From assembly GCA_019056785.1 (NCBI GenBank), contig DXJV01000087.1:34707-98706 (forward strand): 64,000 nucleotides of DNA. The letters run 5' to 3'. The stretch comes from Candidatus Heimdallarchaeota archaeon (GTDB lineage: Archaea > Asgardarchaeota > Heimdallarchaeia > JABLTI01). The notes under the pieces were generated by a model. The model worked only from the letters and a program-made list of their open reading frames with translations. It was not told where the DNA came from and did no database searches. This document shows positions 12,291 to 64,000 of this stretch, in pieces (position 1 is the first letter of the stretch; each line of letters starts with the position of its first letter). The position numbers and the translations under genes were made by a program.

Positions 12291-12827
12291 TTAGACCTCC
12301 TTTAGCATTTTAATGAACCATGAAAATGAATCATATACACCTTCGCCGGTTCTTGCAGAAGTGGGGAAGCAAGCCCAGGTAATCGGTAAATCGATATCCA
12401 TGAGACCGAATTCTTCGATGAATTCTTTTCGAGAAAGACTATTAGGTAAGTCAACTTTATTTAGCAAGATTAACACAGGTGTTTCTTCGTTGATTTGTGT
12501 GTTAAGAATGTTGTAGAAAATTTCTTTCGCTTCTGCCAAGCGAACAACATCTGTACTATCAACCACAAACACAAGAGCATCTGACTTTTCATTAATTTGA
12601 TTCCAAAGTCCTCGAAAGTCTTCCTGACCACCAAGATCAAAAACATTTAAACGCAATTTTGGAAAATTAATTGTTTCACGATTTACCCCCATTGTTGGGA
12701 TAGTTTCGATAAATTCACCTTTTACCAAATAATTTAGTAGAGTGGTTTTTCCGGCTTTGTCTAAGCCACAAATAGTCATATTTACTTGTTTTGTCTACTT
12801 TTAAAGAGTTTTTATAAAAAAAGACAT
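12291..12827 (-). CDS. Arf-family small GTPase; N-terminal helix region disrupted (intact ORF from 12779)
   Basis: G1 GLDKAGKT, G2 TIPTMG, G3 DLGGQ, FRGLW, G4 NKVD, G5 TSA; upstream ATG 12827 with GGTGA is in frame but followed by TAA and TAG. Confidence 0.9.
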
Positions 12828-57914: not shown

Positions 57915-60137
57915 TCACTTCTTCCTCTCCTTTGTTAAGACACTAGAGTCATCTCGAAAGTTTTTCGCTGAGATCATTCTTATAGAAGCAACCAATATTG
58001 GCAGAACAATAAAGCCGACTAAAAAAAAGGCAGGTGTTAAAATGAAAAATCGATTTGGTTCGCTCGTTACTTTCACTATGGCTGAAGGTTCACTATAGAA
58101 ATCATATCCATAGAAATCATTAACCAAAGTAATAAATCTAACGCGTAAACAATATTCACCATCTGGAAGCCCATCTAAAGAGATTCCTTCGACATACCAC
58201 CACTCTTTAACCGGGTCCCAAAGCAAATCTCCAATTCTGTAGCTTGGAAATAAATCTTTCGTGAAAATGCGCCACTTTGCTTCACGAACATCCTCGATTT
58301 TGGGGTCAATAGGCATTTCATAGATATAATAATGATCTATTCGCGTATTATTATACTCATCATATGCTGTAATATTGTAAGCATTAAGGATTTTCTTTTT
58401 AGAATCATAAACGATTTGGGGCATGGAAACAGTAAGCAAATGAGGACGCGTAACAAAAGTGTTTGTAGACTCACCTCTTGCAAAAGGATAAAAGAAAACA
58501 TCATTATGCCAATTAGTAAGAGAAGAACCCACTGGAACATTTAAGTAAAAATCAACCACAATATAAAGGATTACACCGGTGAAAGTAACAACCCACCCTA
58601 AATCGATGTTCAATGCTTCCCAAACACTGGCATTCTCGTTATAAGTTAAATTTCCATTGACGACATTACCAAAGATGTCTTTTTTTGGATAACCAACCCT
58701 ATTGATAGGGGTAGTGAAACCCATACCATATTGGTAAATGGTCCATGTAGCTTTGTAGACGTCTTCGGGGAGTATCATTCCTACTTCCGGAAGTTCACAG
58801 AAGGCAGTGACGTTATAGATGTCTAATATCCAGTCGCTATCTGAATATCTAAAGTCGATTGATGTGAATGTAACATTGAAATAAGAAACTACAAAGAACG
58901 TCTTTGAAAGGTTACTCCATGTGGGCCCTGCACGGAGCATATCAAAACGTACAATCACAGAGGTATTACAATTTGGCTTTAACCAGCGAGCGAGGGTGTT
59001 CGTTAGCGACCACTTGCCTGTCTGTGAGTTAAATTGTAGCGGGATTGGATTGCTCGAAAGCTCTAAGGGGTTATTTTGAGAGTCGTAAAAAATAAACCAG
59101 GCTTCCGCCAATGTTGCCATACTACTCTCGTTAAGAATATAAGTACCTGTGCTTGTGACATATCGCACTTCCATTTCTGAAAGGTTCAAGAGATTTGTTG
59201 TATTATCATAGAATGCAACCGGTCTTGGTATTATTAAATAGCGCCAGTTTACTTCGAGCATCGCTTTTTCCAATGCAGCATATATTGCTTCCACCGCATA
59301 GGTCAAACACTTCTTTGTCATGTTATAATACTCTGTGGGCCAATCCGAGGCCTTCATTATGGTTGCATTGAAATCCATTGCCAGGTTTTCTACCATGGGA
59401 TAAACTTGTTTTGCTAAGGCGACAGTAGCATTCCAAGCGGTTATTGGTTGCTTTTTTATTGGACTAAGAGCAAAGAACTCATTGTAATAACCTGTCAAAT
59501 TTGTAAATCGGTAATTAAAGGATGGCTTGGGAAGGCGCTCCTTTCCCAGCCCTGCTTCTATTGCCCCCTCATAAGAAAGCCAAGTCGTTATATTCAACTC
59601 TCCCCATTTGGTTTCATTCCAAAGTGCTTTCCATATTCCTGCCTGGGAAATGTAATGAGCCATTGTTCCCGCATAAAAAGCTGCTTTCTGATAATTAGAT
59701 TCTTCTTTTTTCAACTCTGTGAGTAATTTAGAGTACTCTTCTTGTGCTCTATCTGCAAGGCTACTGTTAAGCACTTCAACGCCAGCTTGATCAAGCCCAA
59801 TGCTCAGCTCTTCAATATCCCCGTACACACCCCCGTTTGTGTATCCATATGCAAAGCTTGCAGCCGGCATAAAGGGAGCCTCAACGCCATGCCAAAAAGC
59901 ATAGAGATTTTCAGTTATCCAAGTAATTTTTGCTTCCGGAAAGAGTTTTATTGCTTCCCAAGCCAACCATTGATGCGTTGAGAAACAGGGCTTCTCAAAT
60001 AACTCCTCCTCCTCTGTCTCATCAGCATGCCAGCCGATCACTTTTAATGACAGCGAAGAGCAGACTACTACTAGTATAAGAAAAAAACCACTTGCTTTTC
60101 TTTTCCAGATTGAAAACCACAATACCCCTTTTGCCAT
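57915..60137 (-). CDS. Secreted, C-terminally anchored protein with Zn-dependent phospholipase C-like domain and beta-rich domains
   Basis: Signal peptide then GW, STHQWLA, AAFYAGTMAHYI, YEGAIE; many N-x-S/T sequons; C-terminal TM plus basic tail. Confidence 0.75.
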   Translation of the reverse strand: MAKGVLWFSIWKRKASGFFLILVVVCSSLSLKVIGWHADETEEEELFEKPCFSTHQWLAWEAIKLFPEAKITWITENLYAFWHGVEAPFMPAASFAYGYTNGGVYGDIEELSIGLDQAGVEVLNSSLADRAQEEYSKLLTELKKEESNYQKAAFYAGTMAHYISQAGIWKALWNETKWGELNITTWLSYEGAIEAGLGKERLPKPSFNYRFTNLTGYYNEFFALSPIKKQPITAWNATVALAKQVYPMVENLAMDFNATIMKASDWPTEYYNMTKKCLTYAVEAIYAALEKAMLEVNWRYLIIPRPVAFYDNTTNLLNLSEMEVRYVTSTGTYILNESSMATLAEAWFIFYDSQNNPLELSSNPIPLQFNSQTGKWSLTNTLARWLKPNCNTSVIVRFDMLRAGPTWSNLSKTFFVVSYFNVTFTSIDFRYSDSDWILDIYNVTAFCELPEVGMILPEDVYKATWTIYQYGMGFTTPINRVGYPKKDIFGNVVNGNLTYNENASVWEALNIDLGWVVTFTGVILYIVVDFYLNVPVGSSLTNWHNDVFFYPFARGESTNTFVTRPHLLTVSMPQIVYDSKKKILNAYNITAYDEYNNTRIDHYYIYEMPIDPKIEDVREAKWRIFTKDLFPSYRIGDLLWDPVKEWWYVEGISLDGLPDGEYCLRVRFITLVNDFYGYDFYSEPSAIVKVTSEPNRFFILTPAFFLVGFIVLPILVASIRMISAKNFRDDSSVLTKERKK

Positions 60138-60242: not shown

Positions 60243-61700
60243 TTATTTAGATTGAAATTGAGCATCTTCGCAAGCGGATTGTGCAACTGCAATTACAAGG
60301 GCTTTTTTTTCGAGTAATTGTTCTTCCGGTTGCTTTTTCACCAAACTCTCCTCGATAAAGAAATAGCCTATGGATGCAAGAAATCGCAACACGGCAATAA
60401 CGCTAAAGGTGATGATGATCATTTGTTTTGTTCCAACTTGGTTTTCAATAGCATCGGCAATAAAACCAACAGAGAGAGAGCCTATGAATGTGGCAATGCC
60501 CCAACCGACTTGATTTAAGCCTGAATAGGCACCCATTTGATCTCTTGGGGCTATATCCAAGATATAAGCATTTTGTGCCACCACGGTCATACCCATCCCT
60601 GTTCCACCTAGAATATTAGAGAATAAAAGCACTTTCCAATTATTAAAAAGAATAGCGCCGATCATTACAATAGGGATAGTAAACATCACCATCCGACCAT
60701 AAATGATGAATGGCTTACGACCGAATTTATCACCCAATTTCCCTCCAATAAGCTGCCCTAAGCTAGAGCAAATTGAGAATACAACATTGATTATAGCAAT
60801 TTGAGTAAATCCCATCTCCAACACGCCCACTTGAGCTATGGGAAATATGGGCCACATAGTTGCCATAATTAAGCCAAAAACCGAATTAACGATGAAAAAG
60901 CGCTTGAATTTTTCATTTTTCAAAGCGACAAACATACTTGGCTGTTTTTTCTGCTTGTCTTTTTTATTAACAAGTCGAGTTTCTTTTAAAAAGAAGACTC
61001 CCACCACACAGAGCAAGAAATTTAATGCGGCAATACCAAACGCAACACCATATTCTATTGGCCAAAGTTTTTCAGGGATATAGAACTCTAAAAACCATTT
61101 CTTGAAGATATAGCCTTGATGGTTATCAAAGTAGTTAAAAATGGTTGCCAAGATAAGCATGGAACTCACCGATACCGCCGTTCCCATCGCAGAGAGCCGA
61201 CCAATAAACCTTGCCCGTTCTTCTGTCTTTGTAACATCTCCGAGCGTTGCATTCCAAACAGGGATAATTATACTTAAGGCAGTAGCTTGGACGATAGAAA
61301 TGATAATTAACATTAATGGGTTATTGATGAAAATTAAAACAATCATTATTGAGAAACTCAGGAAAAAACCTAAGAGAAGCAAAAAGCGCCGGCCAATTCT
61401 ATCACTCAATCGGCCAAGACTCCCTTGAAATAAGGAGCTCAATAAATTACGTATCGAAGTTATAAAACCAAGAATAGAACTGGAAACACCGACATTTACT
61501 GCAAAGGCAGAAAAGAAATTAAAGAGGAAAGATTGACCGGTAGCATTCCCAATTGCAATTAATCTGAACAAACCCATGCGCCCTTTTTGAACGGATGGAG
61601 CTTCCTCTCTAGACTCTTCACTCAAACGTTCTTGTGCGAATTCGGGAGGTTCAAAATCATCTGGAGTGACATCCTCTGTTGATGGCTCCTTTTTGTTCAT
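60243..61700 (-). CDS. MFS transporter (paralog of 54817-56166)
   Basis: GRLSDRIGRR, GKLGDKFGRK; shared TSIRNLL, PxWNAxLGDVT, NAYxLDxAP. Confidence 0.92.
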   Translation of the reverse strand: MNKKEPSTEDVTPDDFEPPEFAQERLSEESREEAPSVQKGRMGLFRLIAIGNATGQSFLFNFFSAFAVNVGVSSSILGFITSIRNLLSSLFQGSLGRLSDRIGRRFLLLLGFFLSFSIMIVLIFINNPLMLIIISIVQATALSIIIPVWNATLGDVTKTEERARFIGRLSAMGTAVSVSSMLILATIFNYFDNHQGYIFKKWFLEFYIPEKLWPIEYGVAFGIAALNFLLCVVGVFFLKETRLVNKKDKQKKQPSMFVALKNEKFKRFFIVNSVFGLIMATMWPIFPIAQVGVLEMGFTQIAIINVVFSICSSLGQLIGGKLGDKFGRKPFIIYGRMVMFTIPIVMIGAILFNNWKVLLFSNILGGTGMGMTVVAQNAYILDIAPRDQMGAYSGLNQVGWGIATFIGSLSVGFIADAIENQVGTKQMIIITFSVIAVLRFLASIGYFFIEESLVKKQPEEQLLEKKALVIAVAQSACEDAQFQSK

Positions 61701-61876
61701 CGTCTTTTGCTCCCAAACCGCAACGGATGCTAATTTCTGACAAATTTAAATATTCAACTAAATTTAAACGTTTGGAAAGAAGTAAAAAAAGTCCTTATTT
61801 TTTCTTTTCTTTCCTAAATGAATAGCTTTATAGTTAACTATTTAAGATAAAGTATAGAACCCAATTACGAGAGCAA

Positions 61877-62233
61877 ATGGTGAAGATGTTTCATTTGTTA
61901 GGCAAAGACTGGGCGTTAAAACCCACAGACCATGTAACATTTACAACCGAAATGGTTATTGCTGGGGGATTTCTAGTTGTTTGGGTACTTGTTATTCTCC
62001 TTAGAGTTCATTACCCTAAATTCACTAAAATTGGTGGGACAGAATTAATTATAGGTATGCCTTTTATCATTTTAAAGGGGGTTTTTGATGGTTTGGACAC
62101 AATTTCTCCTGATAACTTTAAGATCATTTTCGATAGTTTGGAATCGAGCTTCTTATTTATCGGGTTAATTTTACTGGGTGTGGGGCTATTACGAATAGCA
62201 AATCACAGTGCCAAAATTTGGGAGGTCCGGTAG
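61877..62233 (+). CDS. 3-TM membrane protein
   Basis: Three hydrophobic helices; first gene of a 3-gene run. Confidence 0.75.
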   Translation: MVKMFHLLGKDWALKPTDHVTFTTEMVIAGGFLVVWVLVILLRVHYPKFTKIGGTELIIGMPFIILKGVFDGLDTISPDNFKIIFDSLESSFLFIGLILLGVGLLRIANHSAKIWEVR

Positions 62234-62236
62234 AAG

Positions 62237-62641
62237 ATGACATGGACAATTCAAGCATTTATTGATCATTGGATAATTCCAAGCAGCTGGCAAGATTATC
62301 GCGACATTGTTATGGAATCTCTTACAGTACTCGCGTTTCTATTTTTACTAGTAGTTATCATTATTTCAATGAAAAAGAGTCCCATTTTGAACAAACACGG
62401 TTCAATTGAATTCCTTTTCTTTGTTATCCTCGGCTTTGTGCATGCAACTATGAATGTATTTGATGAATTTGCATGGATTGGCCCCTATACCTATTGGAAA
62501 CTTGGAAAAGACCTCACTTTGCTTTTCGCTGCCATAATACTTGTCGTTGGCTTCTTCCGATTCTTTACCTTTTCTTGGCGGCTATTAGGTGAAGAAGATG
62601 AGGGGGGCAGGGCAAAGAAGATAGAAGAAACCACTCCTTGA
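62237..62641 (+). CDS. 3-TM membrane protein, distant paralog of the preceding gene
   Basis: Same E(TM1), P..., GxxE(TM2), D, GxxR(TM3) pattern. Confidence 0.75.
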   Translation: MTWTIQAFIDHWIIPSSWQDYRDIVMESLTVLAFLFLLVVIIISMKKSPILNKHGSIEFLFFVILGFVHATMNVFDEFAWIGPYTYWKLGKDLTLLFAAIILVVGFFRFFTFSWRLLGEEDEGGRAKKIEETTP

Positions 62642-62693
62642 GAAAAACAATAACATTTAAACATTGGAATGCCTTGAAACGGGGTGAACAGCA

Positions 62694-63569
62694 ATGATTG
62701 ATGAATTCTTTATCTTACGAAAAGATGGATTAAATCTTTTTCACATCATTCTCGAAAAAGACAGCTATGCTGTTCAAGTTCCGACAGAGCTTTTTGCCGG
62801 CTTTTCCAGTGCCATGGTTGCGTTTGCCAATGAGCTTGGATCAGGCCAATTATCCAAAATTGAGATTGAAGACCAGATTTTCGTTTTTAATTTAAGTGAC
62901 AAGCTAATTACTGTTGCTAAAATTTCAACTGATGATGATGAACATCTAGCTAAACATATTGTTGCTCTTTTAGAAAGGGAATTCATCAATGATTATCGAG
63001 AAGAACTTAAGAATTTTAGGGGAACTGTTCGCAAAGATGTCTTCTTTCCTTTTTCAGAGAAAGTGCACGAAATCATTAAGAAATGCATGAAAGTCGCCGC
63101 AAAAAACCCCCATCTCTTAGAGAACATTCCTCCAAGTATAGATATTGATGCAATCCTCACTTTAAGTGAATATTCTGATGAATTAATCGAAAATTTCCCT
63201 GACGCAACAATTAGACTTACAAGGGAATTTCAGAGCAAACTTCCTGAGGGAGAGATGCATTATACTATGTTCAAACTCGGGCTCGAGGTAGGAAAGGAAG
63301 TTGCAAAAAAGAAGTTCAATAACAGACAGATCAATGATAAGGGAATCATGAAATTATTGAAGGAGATCAGCATTTGCTCCATGAATGATAATGTTATTTC
63401 TCTGCAGATTTGCCCATTCTGTCGGGGGAGAAAAACAAAGGAGTTTGACTGTGATTTTGTTTCCGGGTTCATAGAGGGGGCTTACAACAATCCGAACATT
63501 GCTGTACGCGAAATCAATTGTCATGCTGTGGGGCACAAGCATTGTGAGTTCCAAGTATATAAGATATAA
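62694..63569 (+). CDS. Longin-like domain fused to V4R domain
   Basis: FFILRKDGLNLF...LFAGFSSAMVAFANEL...EFINDY; CPFCRG, CDFVSGFIEG, EINCHAVGHKHCEF. Confidence 0.85.
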   Translation: MIDEFFILRKDGLNLFHIILEKDSYAVQVPTELFAGFSSAMVAFANELGSGQLSKIEIEDQIFVFNLSDKLITVAKISTDDDEHLAKHIVALLEREFINDYREELKNFRGTVRKDVFFPFSEKVHEIIKKCMKVAAKNPHLLENIPPSIDIDAILTLSEYSDELIENFPDATIRLTREFQSKLPEGEMHYTMFKLGLEVGKEVAKKKFNNRQINDKGIMKLLKEISICSMNDNVISLQICPFCRGRKTKEFDCDFVSGFIEGAYNNPNIAVREINCHAVGHKHCEFQVYKI

Positions 63570-63617: not shown

Positions 63618-64000
63618 TTAATATTTCACAGTTTTAAGGAAATTCGGGTCGTATCGGATTCTTCGCCGTTTCCCTTGGCCGATTATTTCAAGCTTTAATT
63701 TATCAACAATTTTTACGGAATCAAAAACAAATAATTCGTTTTCCAAGCCAAGTTTAAAAGTTCGAAACTCTAGAAGAGCGGCCAATATTTCTTCTTTGAA
63801 TTGCTCTTCGTTGCTAACTTGAGAAGGTTCTATAGTTAATGTTAGCTTTGGTTTAAATCCTTCTCTAGAGATATATACCTCCCAAAGAGCAACTTGTCCA
63901 TGCTTAAAATTAGACTTGAAGATAGAATCAAACTTAATGGCAGAAAAACGGATTATCCCAAGATTGATAACATCATCCGTTCTTCCGATGATTTCCAATC
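63618..64000 (-). CDS. Phenylacetate-CoA ligase-like (PaaK/AMP-binding) enzyme, C-terminal fragment
   Basis: IIGRTDDVI hinge motif and C-terminal GKRRRI; runs off the window end. Confidence 0.75.
   Translation of the reverse strand, partial: LEIIGRTDDVINLGIIRFSAIKFDSIFKSNFKHGQVALWEVYISREGFKPKLTLTIEPSQVSNEEQFKEEILAALLEFRTFKLGLENELFVFDSVKIVDKLKLEIIGQGKRRRIRYDPNFLKTVKY

Follow-up and report, generated by a model that had tools for sequence, protein, structure and literature searches.

What three closely packed genes in a stretch of Heimdallarchaeal DNA have to do with one another, and whether the last of them, encoding a longin domain fused to a V4R domain, points to membrane-trafficking machinery of the eukaryotic kind, is the question raised by the locus described here. 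It is situated in 64,000 nucleotides (nt) of DNA from Candidatus Heimdallarchaeota archaeon (assembly GCA_019056785.1, contig DXJV01000087.1, positions 34,707 to 98,706), hereafter the window, and comprises the genes of two small proteins with three transmembrane (TM) helices each, TM-A and TM-B, followed by the gene of a 291-amino-acid (aa) longin-V4R protein. The case that Asgard archaea already possessed membrane-regulating machinery draws in part on longin and Bet3/V4R-fold proteins as "eukaryotic signature" components, and we know almost nothing about the roles and partners of these proteins in the archaeal cell. An earlier note, made from the sequence alone, had described the three genes as an operon of two paralogous 3-TM proteins and a longin-V4R fusion, and had read the latter as a one-polypeptide forerunner of the TRAPP complex or a ligand-gated guanine nucleotide exchange factor (GEF) tied to a heterodimeric membrane component. 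The description proved to be correct, being supported by the folds, the paralogy and the linkage reported below: the three genes form a real, conserved module, which is restricted to the Asgard archaea and built from known folds. The functional reading fared differently.

The argument for a shared function of the three proteins rests on gene linkage. Profile searches for the longin-V4R and TM-B proteins were performed over 400 Asgard genomes, assigned to GTDB families which are labelled f1-f31 here. Full-length longin-V4R genes were found in several families besides that of the window, and robust TM-B matches in 48 of the 400 genomes, belonging to 11 families: f1, which includes genome G000 (7 of the 12 genomes searched), f3 (4 of 31), f6 (4 of 22), f7 (1 of 2), f15 (2 of 3), f19 (8 of 14), f20 (2 of 135), f25 (2 of 5), f28 (2 of 5), f30 (the single genome searched) and f31 (15 of 89). 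In 47 of these 48 genomes no more than about 1 kb separates TM-B from the longin-V4R gene, the exception (G322) being due to a contig end, and TM-A adjoins TM-B in every locus checked with hidden Markov models. The linkage is kept through three gene orders, namely TM-A, TM-B, longin-V4R as in the window; longin-V4R, TM-A, TM-B (f7, f15, f28); and TM-A and TM-B convergent with the longin-V4R gene (f25 and the metagenome contigs L056-L058). Start and stop codons of the module genes often overlap.

In close relatives (51-99% identity) the trio is located within a syntenic block of approximately 15 kb, together with genes of an M32 peptidase, major facilitator superfamily (MFS) proteins, ANL ligases, SRAP and PolB, so that its adjacency there could be inherited gene order. 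Outside this circle the surroundings change. When 17-kb regions of eight lineages were compared, only the three module genes were common to more than two lineages; the other shared genes were limited to a pair of the same genus (L041 and L042) and to L044 with its close relatives, and the flanks elsewhere contain unrelated housekeeping genes, e.g. those of a class II tRNA synthetase-like protein, PhzF, a metallo-beta-lactamase and a sulfotransferase. The membrane genes are thus conserved neighbours of the longin-V4R gene to a degree far above that which inherited gene order provides for, and the neighbourhood proposed in the earlier note stands. As for the composition of the block in the window's own family, one to four MFS genes precede the module, and an ANL/PaaK-like gene of about 485 aa, an AMP-binding ligase gene, SRAP and PolB follow it (loci L001-L007). 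The MFS proteins and ANL/PaaK-like ligases were considered as functional partners and rejected: they are absent from the wider flanks examined in f3, f6, f19, f20, f25, f28 and f31 and represent lineage-specific synteny.

A search with the TM-B profile against 1.84 billion representative proteins yielded 27 clusters of proteins of 85-244 aa, save one doubtful match of 536 aa, and the distant clusters with readable flanks were again found beside a longin-V4R gene. By their source labels, the members come from Heimdallarchaeota, Hodarchaeota, Helarchaeota, Borrarchaeum, Ca. Harpocratesius repetitus and Ca. Lokiarchaeum ossiferum; in the latter, cultured organism the longin-V4R protein is NEF87_000078 (266 aa). 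Module genes near-identical to Heimdallarchaeal ones were also found in metagenome-assembled genomes labelled "Bathyarchaeia" (L049, DATKZI010000013.1) and "Zixibacteria" (P0052). We reject these labels as a sign of the module outside Asgard archaea and attribute them to probable errors of binning or labelling.

The fusion of the two domains is not new. Tran, Akil, Senju and Robinson (2024, Commun Biol 7:273; PMC10933270) presented, as an AlphaFold2 (AF2) model of one sequence, the "longin-TRAPPC3" fusion MBD3190748.1, and since this protein (P0036 in our data) is a full-length orthologue of the window protein (51% identity over 100% of the query, E 2.1e-89, the same two domains), the domain fusion has already been published. 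In contrast to the present analysis, that paper gives one protein and one model, without the membrane genes, an operon or a wide spread among Asgard archaea, and the word "transmembrane" occurs 0 times in its text (PMC10933270). On its own contig MBD3190748.1 also follows two small TM genes. A limited search of the literature on Asgard V4R proteins and on longin/TRAPP fusions of Heimdallarchaeota found no description of the three-gene unit. The new part is therefore the membrane partnership and its breadth.

Hydropathy analysis assigns three hydrophobic helices to both TM-A and TM-B; in the AF2 model of TM-B, whose mean predicted local distance difference test score (pLDDT) is 86.5, they span residues 18-47, 56-78 and 84-116. 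Similarity between the two proteins is marginal by BLASTP (26% identity, E 0.008), and profile-profile comparison with hhalign gives a probability of 92.6% (E 4.6e-7, 109 columns), which supports their being paralogues. Charge counts over 30 orthologues of each predict that the N-terminus is outside and the C-terminus inside the cell: the TM1-TM2 loop carries 3.3-3.9 Lys and Arg residues per sequence in the two families, and both the N-terminus and the TM2-TM3 connection are acidic and have few Lys or Arg. With this topology the most conserved segment of the pair lies outside the membrane. The deep alignment of TM-A shows no variation at E25 in TM1 or at D71, D74 and T75 of the motif F-D-x-L-D-T, located where TM2 reaches the outer face; on the cytoplasmic side, a conserved tail terminates with W-E-V-R. 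In TM-B the best-conserved segment is the outer TM2-TM3 connection (M72, D76, E77, W80, Y84, W87, K88), including the motif M-D-A-F-D-E-F-x-W-F at the end of TM2, and the conserved cytoplasmic tail, F-S-x-R-L-[FL]-G-E-E, is followed by a variable acidic end. The pattern of intramembrane polar residues that the earlier note had seen in both proteins holds in part. An acidic residue inside TM1 is invariant in both families, and besides it deep orthologues share only the Gly residues of TM3 and the motif F-D-x-[LF]-[DE], with which TM2 ends; however, the Glu of GxxE in TM2 and the Arg of GxxR at the end of TM3 are kept only in the window's own family.

The acidic end of TM-B comprises about 10-25 aa in the window and in other lineages. 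The form found in one Heimdallarchaeal lineage is 266 aa long (L006:7137-7937, L007:692-1492), and its approximately 140 C-terminal residues are almost all Asp, Glu, Val and Thr.

Attempts to place the membrane proteins in a known family ended in its rejection. TM-A had no match above threshold in Pfam or NCBIfam, nor had TM-B, for which DUF981 (PF06168) scored 13.4 bits with the window protein against a gathering threshold of 29 bits and was matched below threshold, in the first half of the model, by 11 of 30 orthologues (best E 3.5e-4). Feature and shape searches of the ESM Atlas retrieved only generic small helical membrane proteins, and Foldseek comparison of the TM-B model with the PDB returned nothing at E 0.001 or below. 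Anchors of the SdhC/SdhD type offer an analogy, as they too are two paralogous 3-TM subunits encoded beside a soluble partner and holding it, and SdhD was among the non-significant fold matches of the TM-B model. However, homology is undetectable (E above 1) and no haem or quinone motif was identified, so that the likeness would be one of design, not of family.

The 291-aa protein was modelled with AF2 on the basis of 27 orthologues (pLDDT 84.3, predicted template-modelling score 0.75). According to DSSP, residues 1-106 of the model have the beta-beta-alpha-beta-beta-beta-alpha topology of a longin domain (strands 4-9 and 14-19, helix 31-47, strands 55-58, 61-67 and 71-78, helix 83-106, then a further helix), with five strands forming a sheet between helices; more helices and an alpha/beta domain at the C-terminus come after it. 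The longin half is most conserved in helix alpha1, with the motif L-F-x-G-x-S-S-A-I. Structural alignment with VIA-align, in which the longin matches span residues 1 to approximately 132-150, gave Z-scores of 13.8 for Sec22b (124 of 127 residues, root-mean-square deviation (rmsd) 2.5), 13.6 for TRAPPC4, 12.9 for Fuzzy, 12.9 for VAMP7 and 12.0 for SRX; Foldseek matched AP sigma (E 2.8e-5), and the nearest shape cluster in the Atlas is an Asgard one annotated "FUZ/MON1/HPS1 first longin domain" (TM-score 0.78). The longin-like N-terminus postulated from sequence is thereby confirmed as a fold. The topology is shared with all the longin domains compared (Sec22b, VAMP7, TRAPPC1/C4, sigma-adaptins, zeta-COP, SRX of SR-alpha and the first longin domain (LD1) of Mon1, Fuzzy and HPS1; Z 11.7-13.8), but no subfamily is singled out. 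Assignment to the SNARE, TRAPP, Mon1/Fuzzy or SRX longins was rejected, as their Z-scores are tied within 1 unit, and all sequence matches are sub-threshold: Mon1 LD1 matched weakly (E 0.022), Fuz_longin_1 matched 9 of 30 orthologues (best E 0.0016) and Longin 3 of 30, and none of the curated longin sequence models exceeded its threshold in these 30. Lokiarchaeial, Helarchaeial and Borrarchaeial orthologues include short forms (254-285 aa) that retain both domains and lack the helical linker following the longin domain (Table 1).

A further longin-bearing protein was observed on contig C72 of G000. It has 424 aa (L009:655-1926, minus strand), matches a longin profile at its N-terminus (positions 7-142, E 5.3e-8) and has a sub-threshold winged-helix match (HTH_45) after it; its gene is located directly downstream of a Roadblock/LC7 gene (L009:1970-2380, minus strand), and similar 424-aa frames are present in many genomes of family f12.

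The C-terminal half, which the earlier note had taken for a Cys-rich V4R domain, was recognized as such by sequence and by structure. Pfam V4R (PF02830) matches residues 234-288 with 35.8 bits at a gathering threshold of 31, the sole Pfam match of the protein, and recognizes all 30 orthologues compared (best E 8.9e-15). Pfam TRAPP (PF04051) does not match the window protein and matches only 4 of the 30 orthologues, below threshold (best E 0.011). Prokaryotic V4R domains, such as MJ1460 (2OSO, 2OSD), the sensor domains of PoxR, MopR and DmpR, and the redox sensor MsvR, bind small aromatic ligands and zinc. The fold of MopR and PoxR is that of the window domain (Z 13.0-13.2; 13.2 for MopR and 13.1 for PoxR), Foldseek matched 2oso with E 2.4e-4, and MJ1460 matched in sequence with E 1.1e-4. 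The eukaryotic-type proteins align equally well: over residues ~166-291, Thor-TRAPPC3 (7YH2, 7YH3), Bet3/TRAPPC3 and TRAPPC6 gave Z 12.5-13.2 at an rmsd of 2.7-2.9, with 13.2 for Thor-TRAPPC3 (7yh3) and 12.7 for Bet3. With Z-scores within 1 unit of one another, Bet3 and the bacterial V4R sensors could not be told apart. Both folds of the 291-aa protein are certain; the subfamilies of its longin and V4R halves are not, because the Z-scores are tied within each group.

Deep orthologues have five invariant cysteines, C240 and C243 (in C-P-x-C), C253, C276 and C284, and the motif G-F-I-E-G (residues 258-262) is also conserved in the V4R half. The Cys-rich site coincides with the zinc site of Thor-TRAPPC3, which is of the Zn(Cys)4 type, and PoxR likewise binds structural zinc at the equivalent place (PMC10933270); by analogy, the Cys cluster of the V4R half is probably a Zn(Cys)4 site. 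The window domain differs from Thor-TRAPPC3 and Bet3 in fitting Pfam V4R and not Pfam TRAPP, in its fusion to a longin domain and in being encoded together with membrane proteins. It differs from PoxR, MopR, DmpR and MsvR in its context as well, for in these V4R drives DNA-binding or AAA+ outputs, whereas here it is paired with a longin domain beside a membrane pair. In some genomes of f31 (G328, L029:31-696; G324, L026:64-690; also G325) an extra gene directly upstream of TM-A encodes a V4R-only protein of ~210-220 aa, so that the module there includes a second Bet3-fold protein, without longin.

The association of the three proteins, which the earlier note had also proposed, was examined by complex prediction with ESMFold2, in one three-chain job with orthologue alignments, three runs and three controls. 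The median complex score was 0.54 (0.64, 0.01 and 0.54 in the individual runs), the best control scoring 0.00; at least 25% of contacts are common to the runs, and the pLDDT of the partners is at least 73. In the calibration of the test, 58 of 80 solved complexes and 2 of 110 mismatched pairs attained the mark; of these, only 7 of the solved complexes, but both mismatches, did so with a score of 0.60 or below. The verdict of the tool is "weak support"; the idea of a complex gains by it, but one run scored near zero, and we count the prediction as a mild nudge only.

Proceeding from the genes, the folds, the paralogy of the membrane proteins and their strict linkage to the longin-V4R gene through three gene orders, we suppose that the module forms neither an enzyme nor a transporter working by itself but a sensor or adaptor complex docked at the membrane, and would give this reading a probability of roughly one half. 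The locus of the window would then be the Heimdallarchaeial copy of an Asgard-wide three-gene module whose products act together at the cell membrane. TM-A and TM-B would heterodimerise into a pseudo-symmetric unit of 3+3 helices, the constrained face of which, with the acidic TM2-end motifs F-D-x-L-D-T (TM-A) and M-D-A-F-D-E-F-x-W (TM-B), is predicted to be outside the cell. Two parts of the pair, the C-terminal tails and a short, conserved loop on the cytoplasmic side (Y-P-x-L-T-x-x-G-W), may hold the longin-V4R protein at the membrane. The V4R domain, judging from the known behaviour of the family and the invariant cysteines, would use Cys-bound zinc for stability, dimerise, and either hold a small hydrophobic ligand or report thiol or metal status. 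The longin domain would be the output face and bind a partner encoded elsewhere in the genome, the signal passing from the V4R domain to it.

Several points weigh against this sensor/adaptor model. The module is patchy, and its presence in ~12% of Asgard genomes indicates that it is dispensable. Neither membrane protein resembles a known family or a solved fold, which leaves room for their acting as a channel or transporter; the pair offers little surface on the cytoplasmic side, with no evident docking site. The interface would most likely involve helix alpha1 of the longin domain, which was modelled with a pLDDT of only 46-64, and the complex prediction is weak, with its one run near zero. 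Asgard-protein GFP fusions were diffuse in HeLa cells (PMC10933270); the membrane partners were absent from that test, and the paper does not say that the longin-V4R fusion was included. Finally, all the evidence comes from computation.

Two alternatives, a redox or metal sensor and a regulated small channel, are main variants of the working model. According to the former, the five cysteines, C-P-x-C included, would do the sensing, oxidation or metal loading would change the state of the V4R domain, as in MsvR, and the longin domain would pass the signal on, the outer acidic motifs of the TM proteins binding the cation. The invariance of these cysteines and the acidic clusters on the outer face of TM-A and TM-B agree with it, as does a weak NCBIfam match of the 291-aa protein to the V4R part of MsvR (E 4.8e-4), although that match is far under the family cut-off of 220 bits. 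The genome from which the window comes (G000; here contig C52, ~41.1-43.1 kb) encodes a 498-aa thioredoxin-V4R-V4R fusion (L010:205-1698, plus strand) with the gene of an AhpC/TSA peroxiredoxin directly downstream (L010:1764-2210, plus strand); this links V4R and thiol-redox chemistry in the organism and keeps the redox variant alive. However, the equivalent Cys site is one of structural zinc in the solved Thor-TRAPPC3 and PoxR (PMC10933270), and the conserved module includes no redox gene. On balance we consider redox or metal sensing rather unlikely.

As to the channel, an ion or small solute would pass the conserved acidic residues of the TM pair, with the longin-V4R protein as the gate. 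A pseudo-symmetric pair of paralogues is typical of small transporters, and TM-A and TM-B would make such a pair; the invariant acidic residue inside TM1 of both, the acidic motifs of TM2 and the adjacency of one to four MFS genes in the window's own family could also be interpreted in this way. But in the seven other families named above the wider flanks contain no MFS genes, neither a transporter family nor a solved transporter fold resembles the two proteins, and a regulated pore would be expected to need more than six helices joined by short loops. We regard this possibility as unlikely.

The reading of the earlier note, that the fusion is a membrane-anchored forerunner of longin/Bet3-type GTPase regulators, appears quite improbable to us in each of its versions: one in which the TM-anchored protein is a TRAPP- or longin-type GEF activating an Asgard Rab/Arf-like GTPase, possibly under the control of a ligand bound in the V4R pocket, and a broader one in which a V4R signal (ligand, lipid or redox) switches the longin face, and the latter activates or recruits such a GTPase. 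If true, it would mean a one-polypeptide, ancestor-like TRAPP or Mon1-type GEF at an archaeal membrane. Comparison of structures with TRAPP bears it out insofar as the longin half matches TRAPPC4, and also Fuzzy and Mon1 LD1, and the V4R half matches Bet3/TRAPPC3 and Thor-TRAPPC3; the weak sequence likeness to Mon1 LD1 and Fuz_longin_1 points the same way. Yet the same scores are tied with those of other longins and of the bacterial phenol sensors MopR and PoxR, and the TRAPP family of Pfam is approached by few orthologues, so that beyond the likeness of folds the reading is unsupported. TRAPP, moreover, is a hetero-oligomer of Bet3-family and longin subunits with GEF activity on Rab1/Ypt1, and its GEF site needs several separate subunits; the module comprises one fusion protein and two membrane proteins, with no Bet3-family partner subunit. 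The tri-longin GEFs (Mon1-Ccz1, Fuzzy-Inturned, HPS1-HPS4) have, and need, three tandem longin domains per chain; the 291-aa protein has one, followed by V4R. Larger or fused longin-V4R forms were not found among proteins of 532-2000 aa, which is weak evidence.

As for a client, longin-GTPase fusions exist in Asgard archaea (PMC10933270; also an Atlas match here), and a GTPase could be encoded elsewhere, more than 40 loci of the Ras/Arf type being present genome-wide; several of these frames have 290-600 aa, suggesting fusions. The genes of GTPases and their regulators are rarely in operons, which makes the partners hard to guess (PMC10933270). A linked small GTPase was nevertheless sought and rejected: there is none among the called genes of the close relatives' loci, and the eight-lineage comparison revealed no further shared family. 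The nearest Ras/Arf-type gene in this genome, the sole one on the contig (Arf profile, E 3.2e-46), is ~49 kb away from the module. Lastly, an adjacency inherited without any shared function, which the 15-kb syntenic block of the window's own family would fit, is hardly credible, being contradicted by the differing flanks outside that family, by the persistence of the trio through three orders including an inversion, and by the fact that TM-B and the longin-V4R gene occur or are missing together in 47 of 48 genomes.

In the window itself (Table 1) the three reading frames are on the same strand and agree exactly in their coordinates with the earlier description, including the spacing of the two 3-TM genes. 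Upstream of the module is an MFS transporter gene on the opposite strand, and in the 176-nt divergent intergenic region between it and TM-A there is a TATA-like A/T-rich stretch, TTTAAGATAAAGTATAG, 20-37 nt 5' of the TM-A start codon. This may be an archaeal promoter, and a transcript started from it would be leaderless or nearly so. Together with sites like the Shine-Dalgarno (SD) sequence before the second and third genes, the stretch would fit a single transcript with internal ribosome-binding sites for the three genes, a view taken from the nucleotide sequence. The convergent downstream neighbour is the C-terminal end of a larger, ANL/PaaK-like gene that leaves the window and has a G-R-T-D-D motif. 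Beyond the MFS gene, a 740-aa protein that begins with a hydrophobic segment, ends in a TM anchor and has many N-x-S/T sequons is probably a surface glycoprotein; it has no Pfam family and no counterpart beside the module in relatives.

Table 1. Features of the module and of its surroundings in the window (positions counted from the first nucleotide of the window)
Feature	Position	Strand	Description	Basis
TM-A	61877-62233	+	118 aa	Open reading frame (ORF) list
TM-B	62237-62641	+	134 aa; start 3 nt past the TM-A stop	ORF list
Longin-V4R protein	62694-63569	+	291 aa; 52-nt gap after TM-B	ORF list
Longin domain	62694-63089	+	Residues 1 to ~132	AF2 model, structure matches
Helical linker	63090-63176	+	Residues ~133-161	AF2 model
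V4R/Bet3-fold domain	63177-63569	+	Residues ~162-291 and stop codon	Pfam, VIA-align
TATA-like A/T-rich stretch TTTAAGATAAAGTATAG	61840-61857	+	Candidate promoter	Read by eye, inference only
SD-like GGGAGGT	62220-62226	+	10 nt 5' of the TM-B start, inside the TM-A 3' end	
SD-like GGGGTGA	62681-62687	+	6 nt 5' of the longin-V4R start codon	
MFS transporter gene	60243-61700	-	Upstream neighbour of the module	
ANL/PaaK-like gene fragment	63618-63998	-	Downstream neighbour of the module	
740-aa protein gene	57915-60137	-	Probable surface glycoprotein	
Ras/Arf-type small GTPase gene	12303-12818	-	Sole such gene on the contig	

In general, the module gives the longin-V4R protein a fixed and conserved partnership with integral membrane proteins. 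Because it occurs in at least 11 Asgard families, and in the cultured Ca. Lokiarchaeum ossiferum among them, the composition of the complex, its association with the membrane, its metal, its ligand and a possible GTPase client are directly testable. As to eukaryotic TRAPP, nothing shows the module to be its forerunner, and that descent, suggested by likeness of fold, is unproven. Should the module turn out to be only a sensor of small molecules, it would warn against reading every longin or Bet3 fold of the Asgard archaea as a piece of trafficking machinery.

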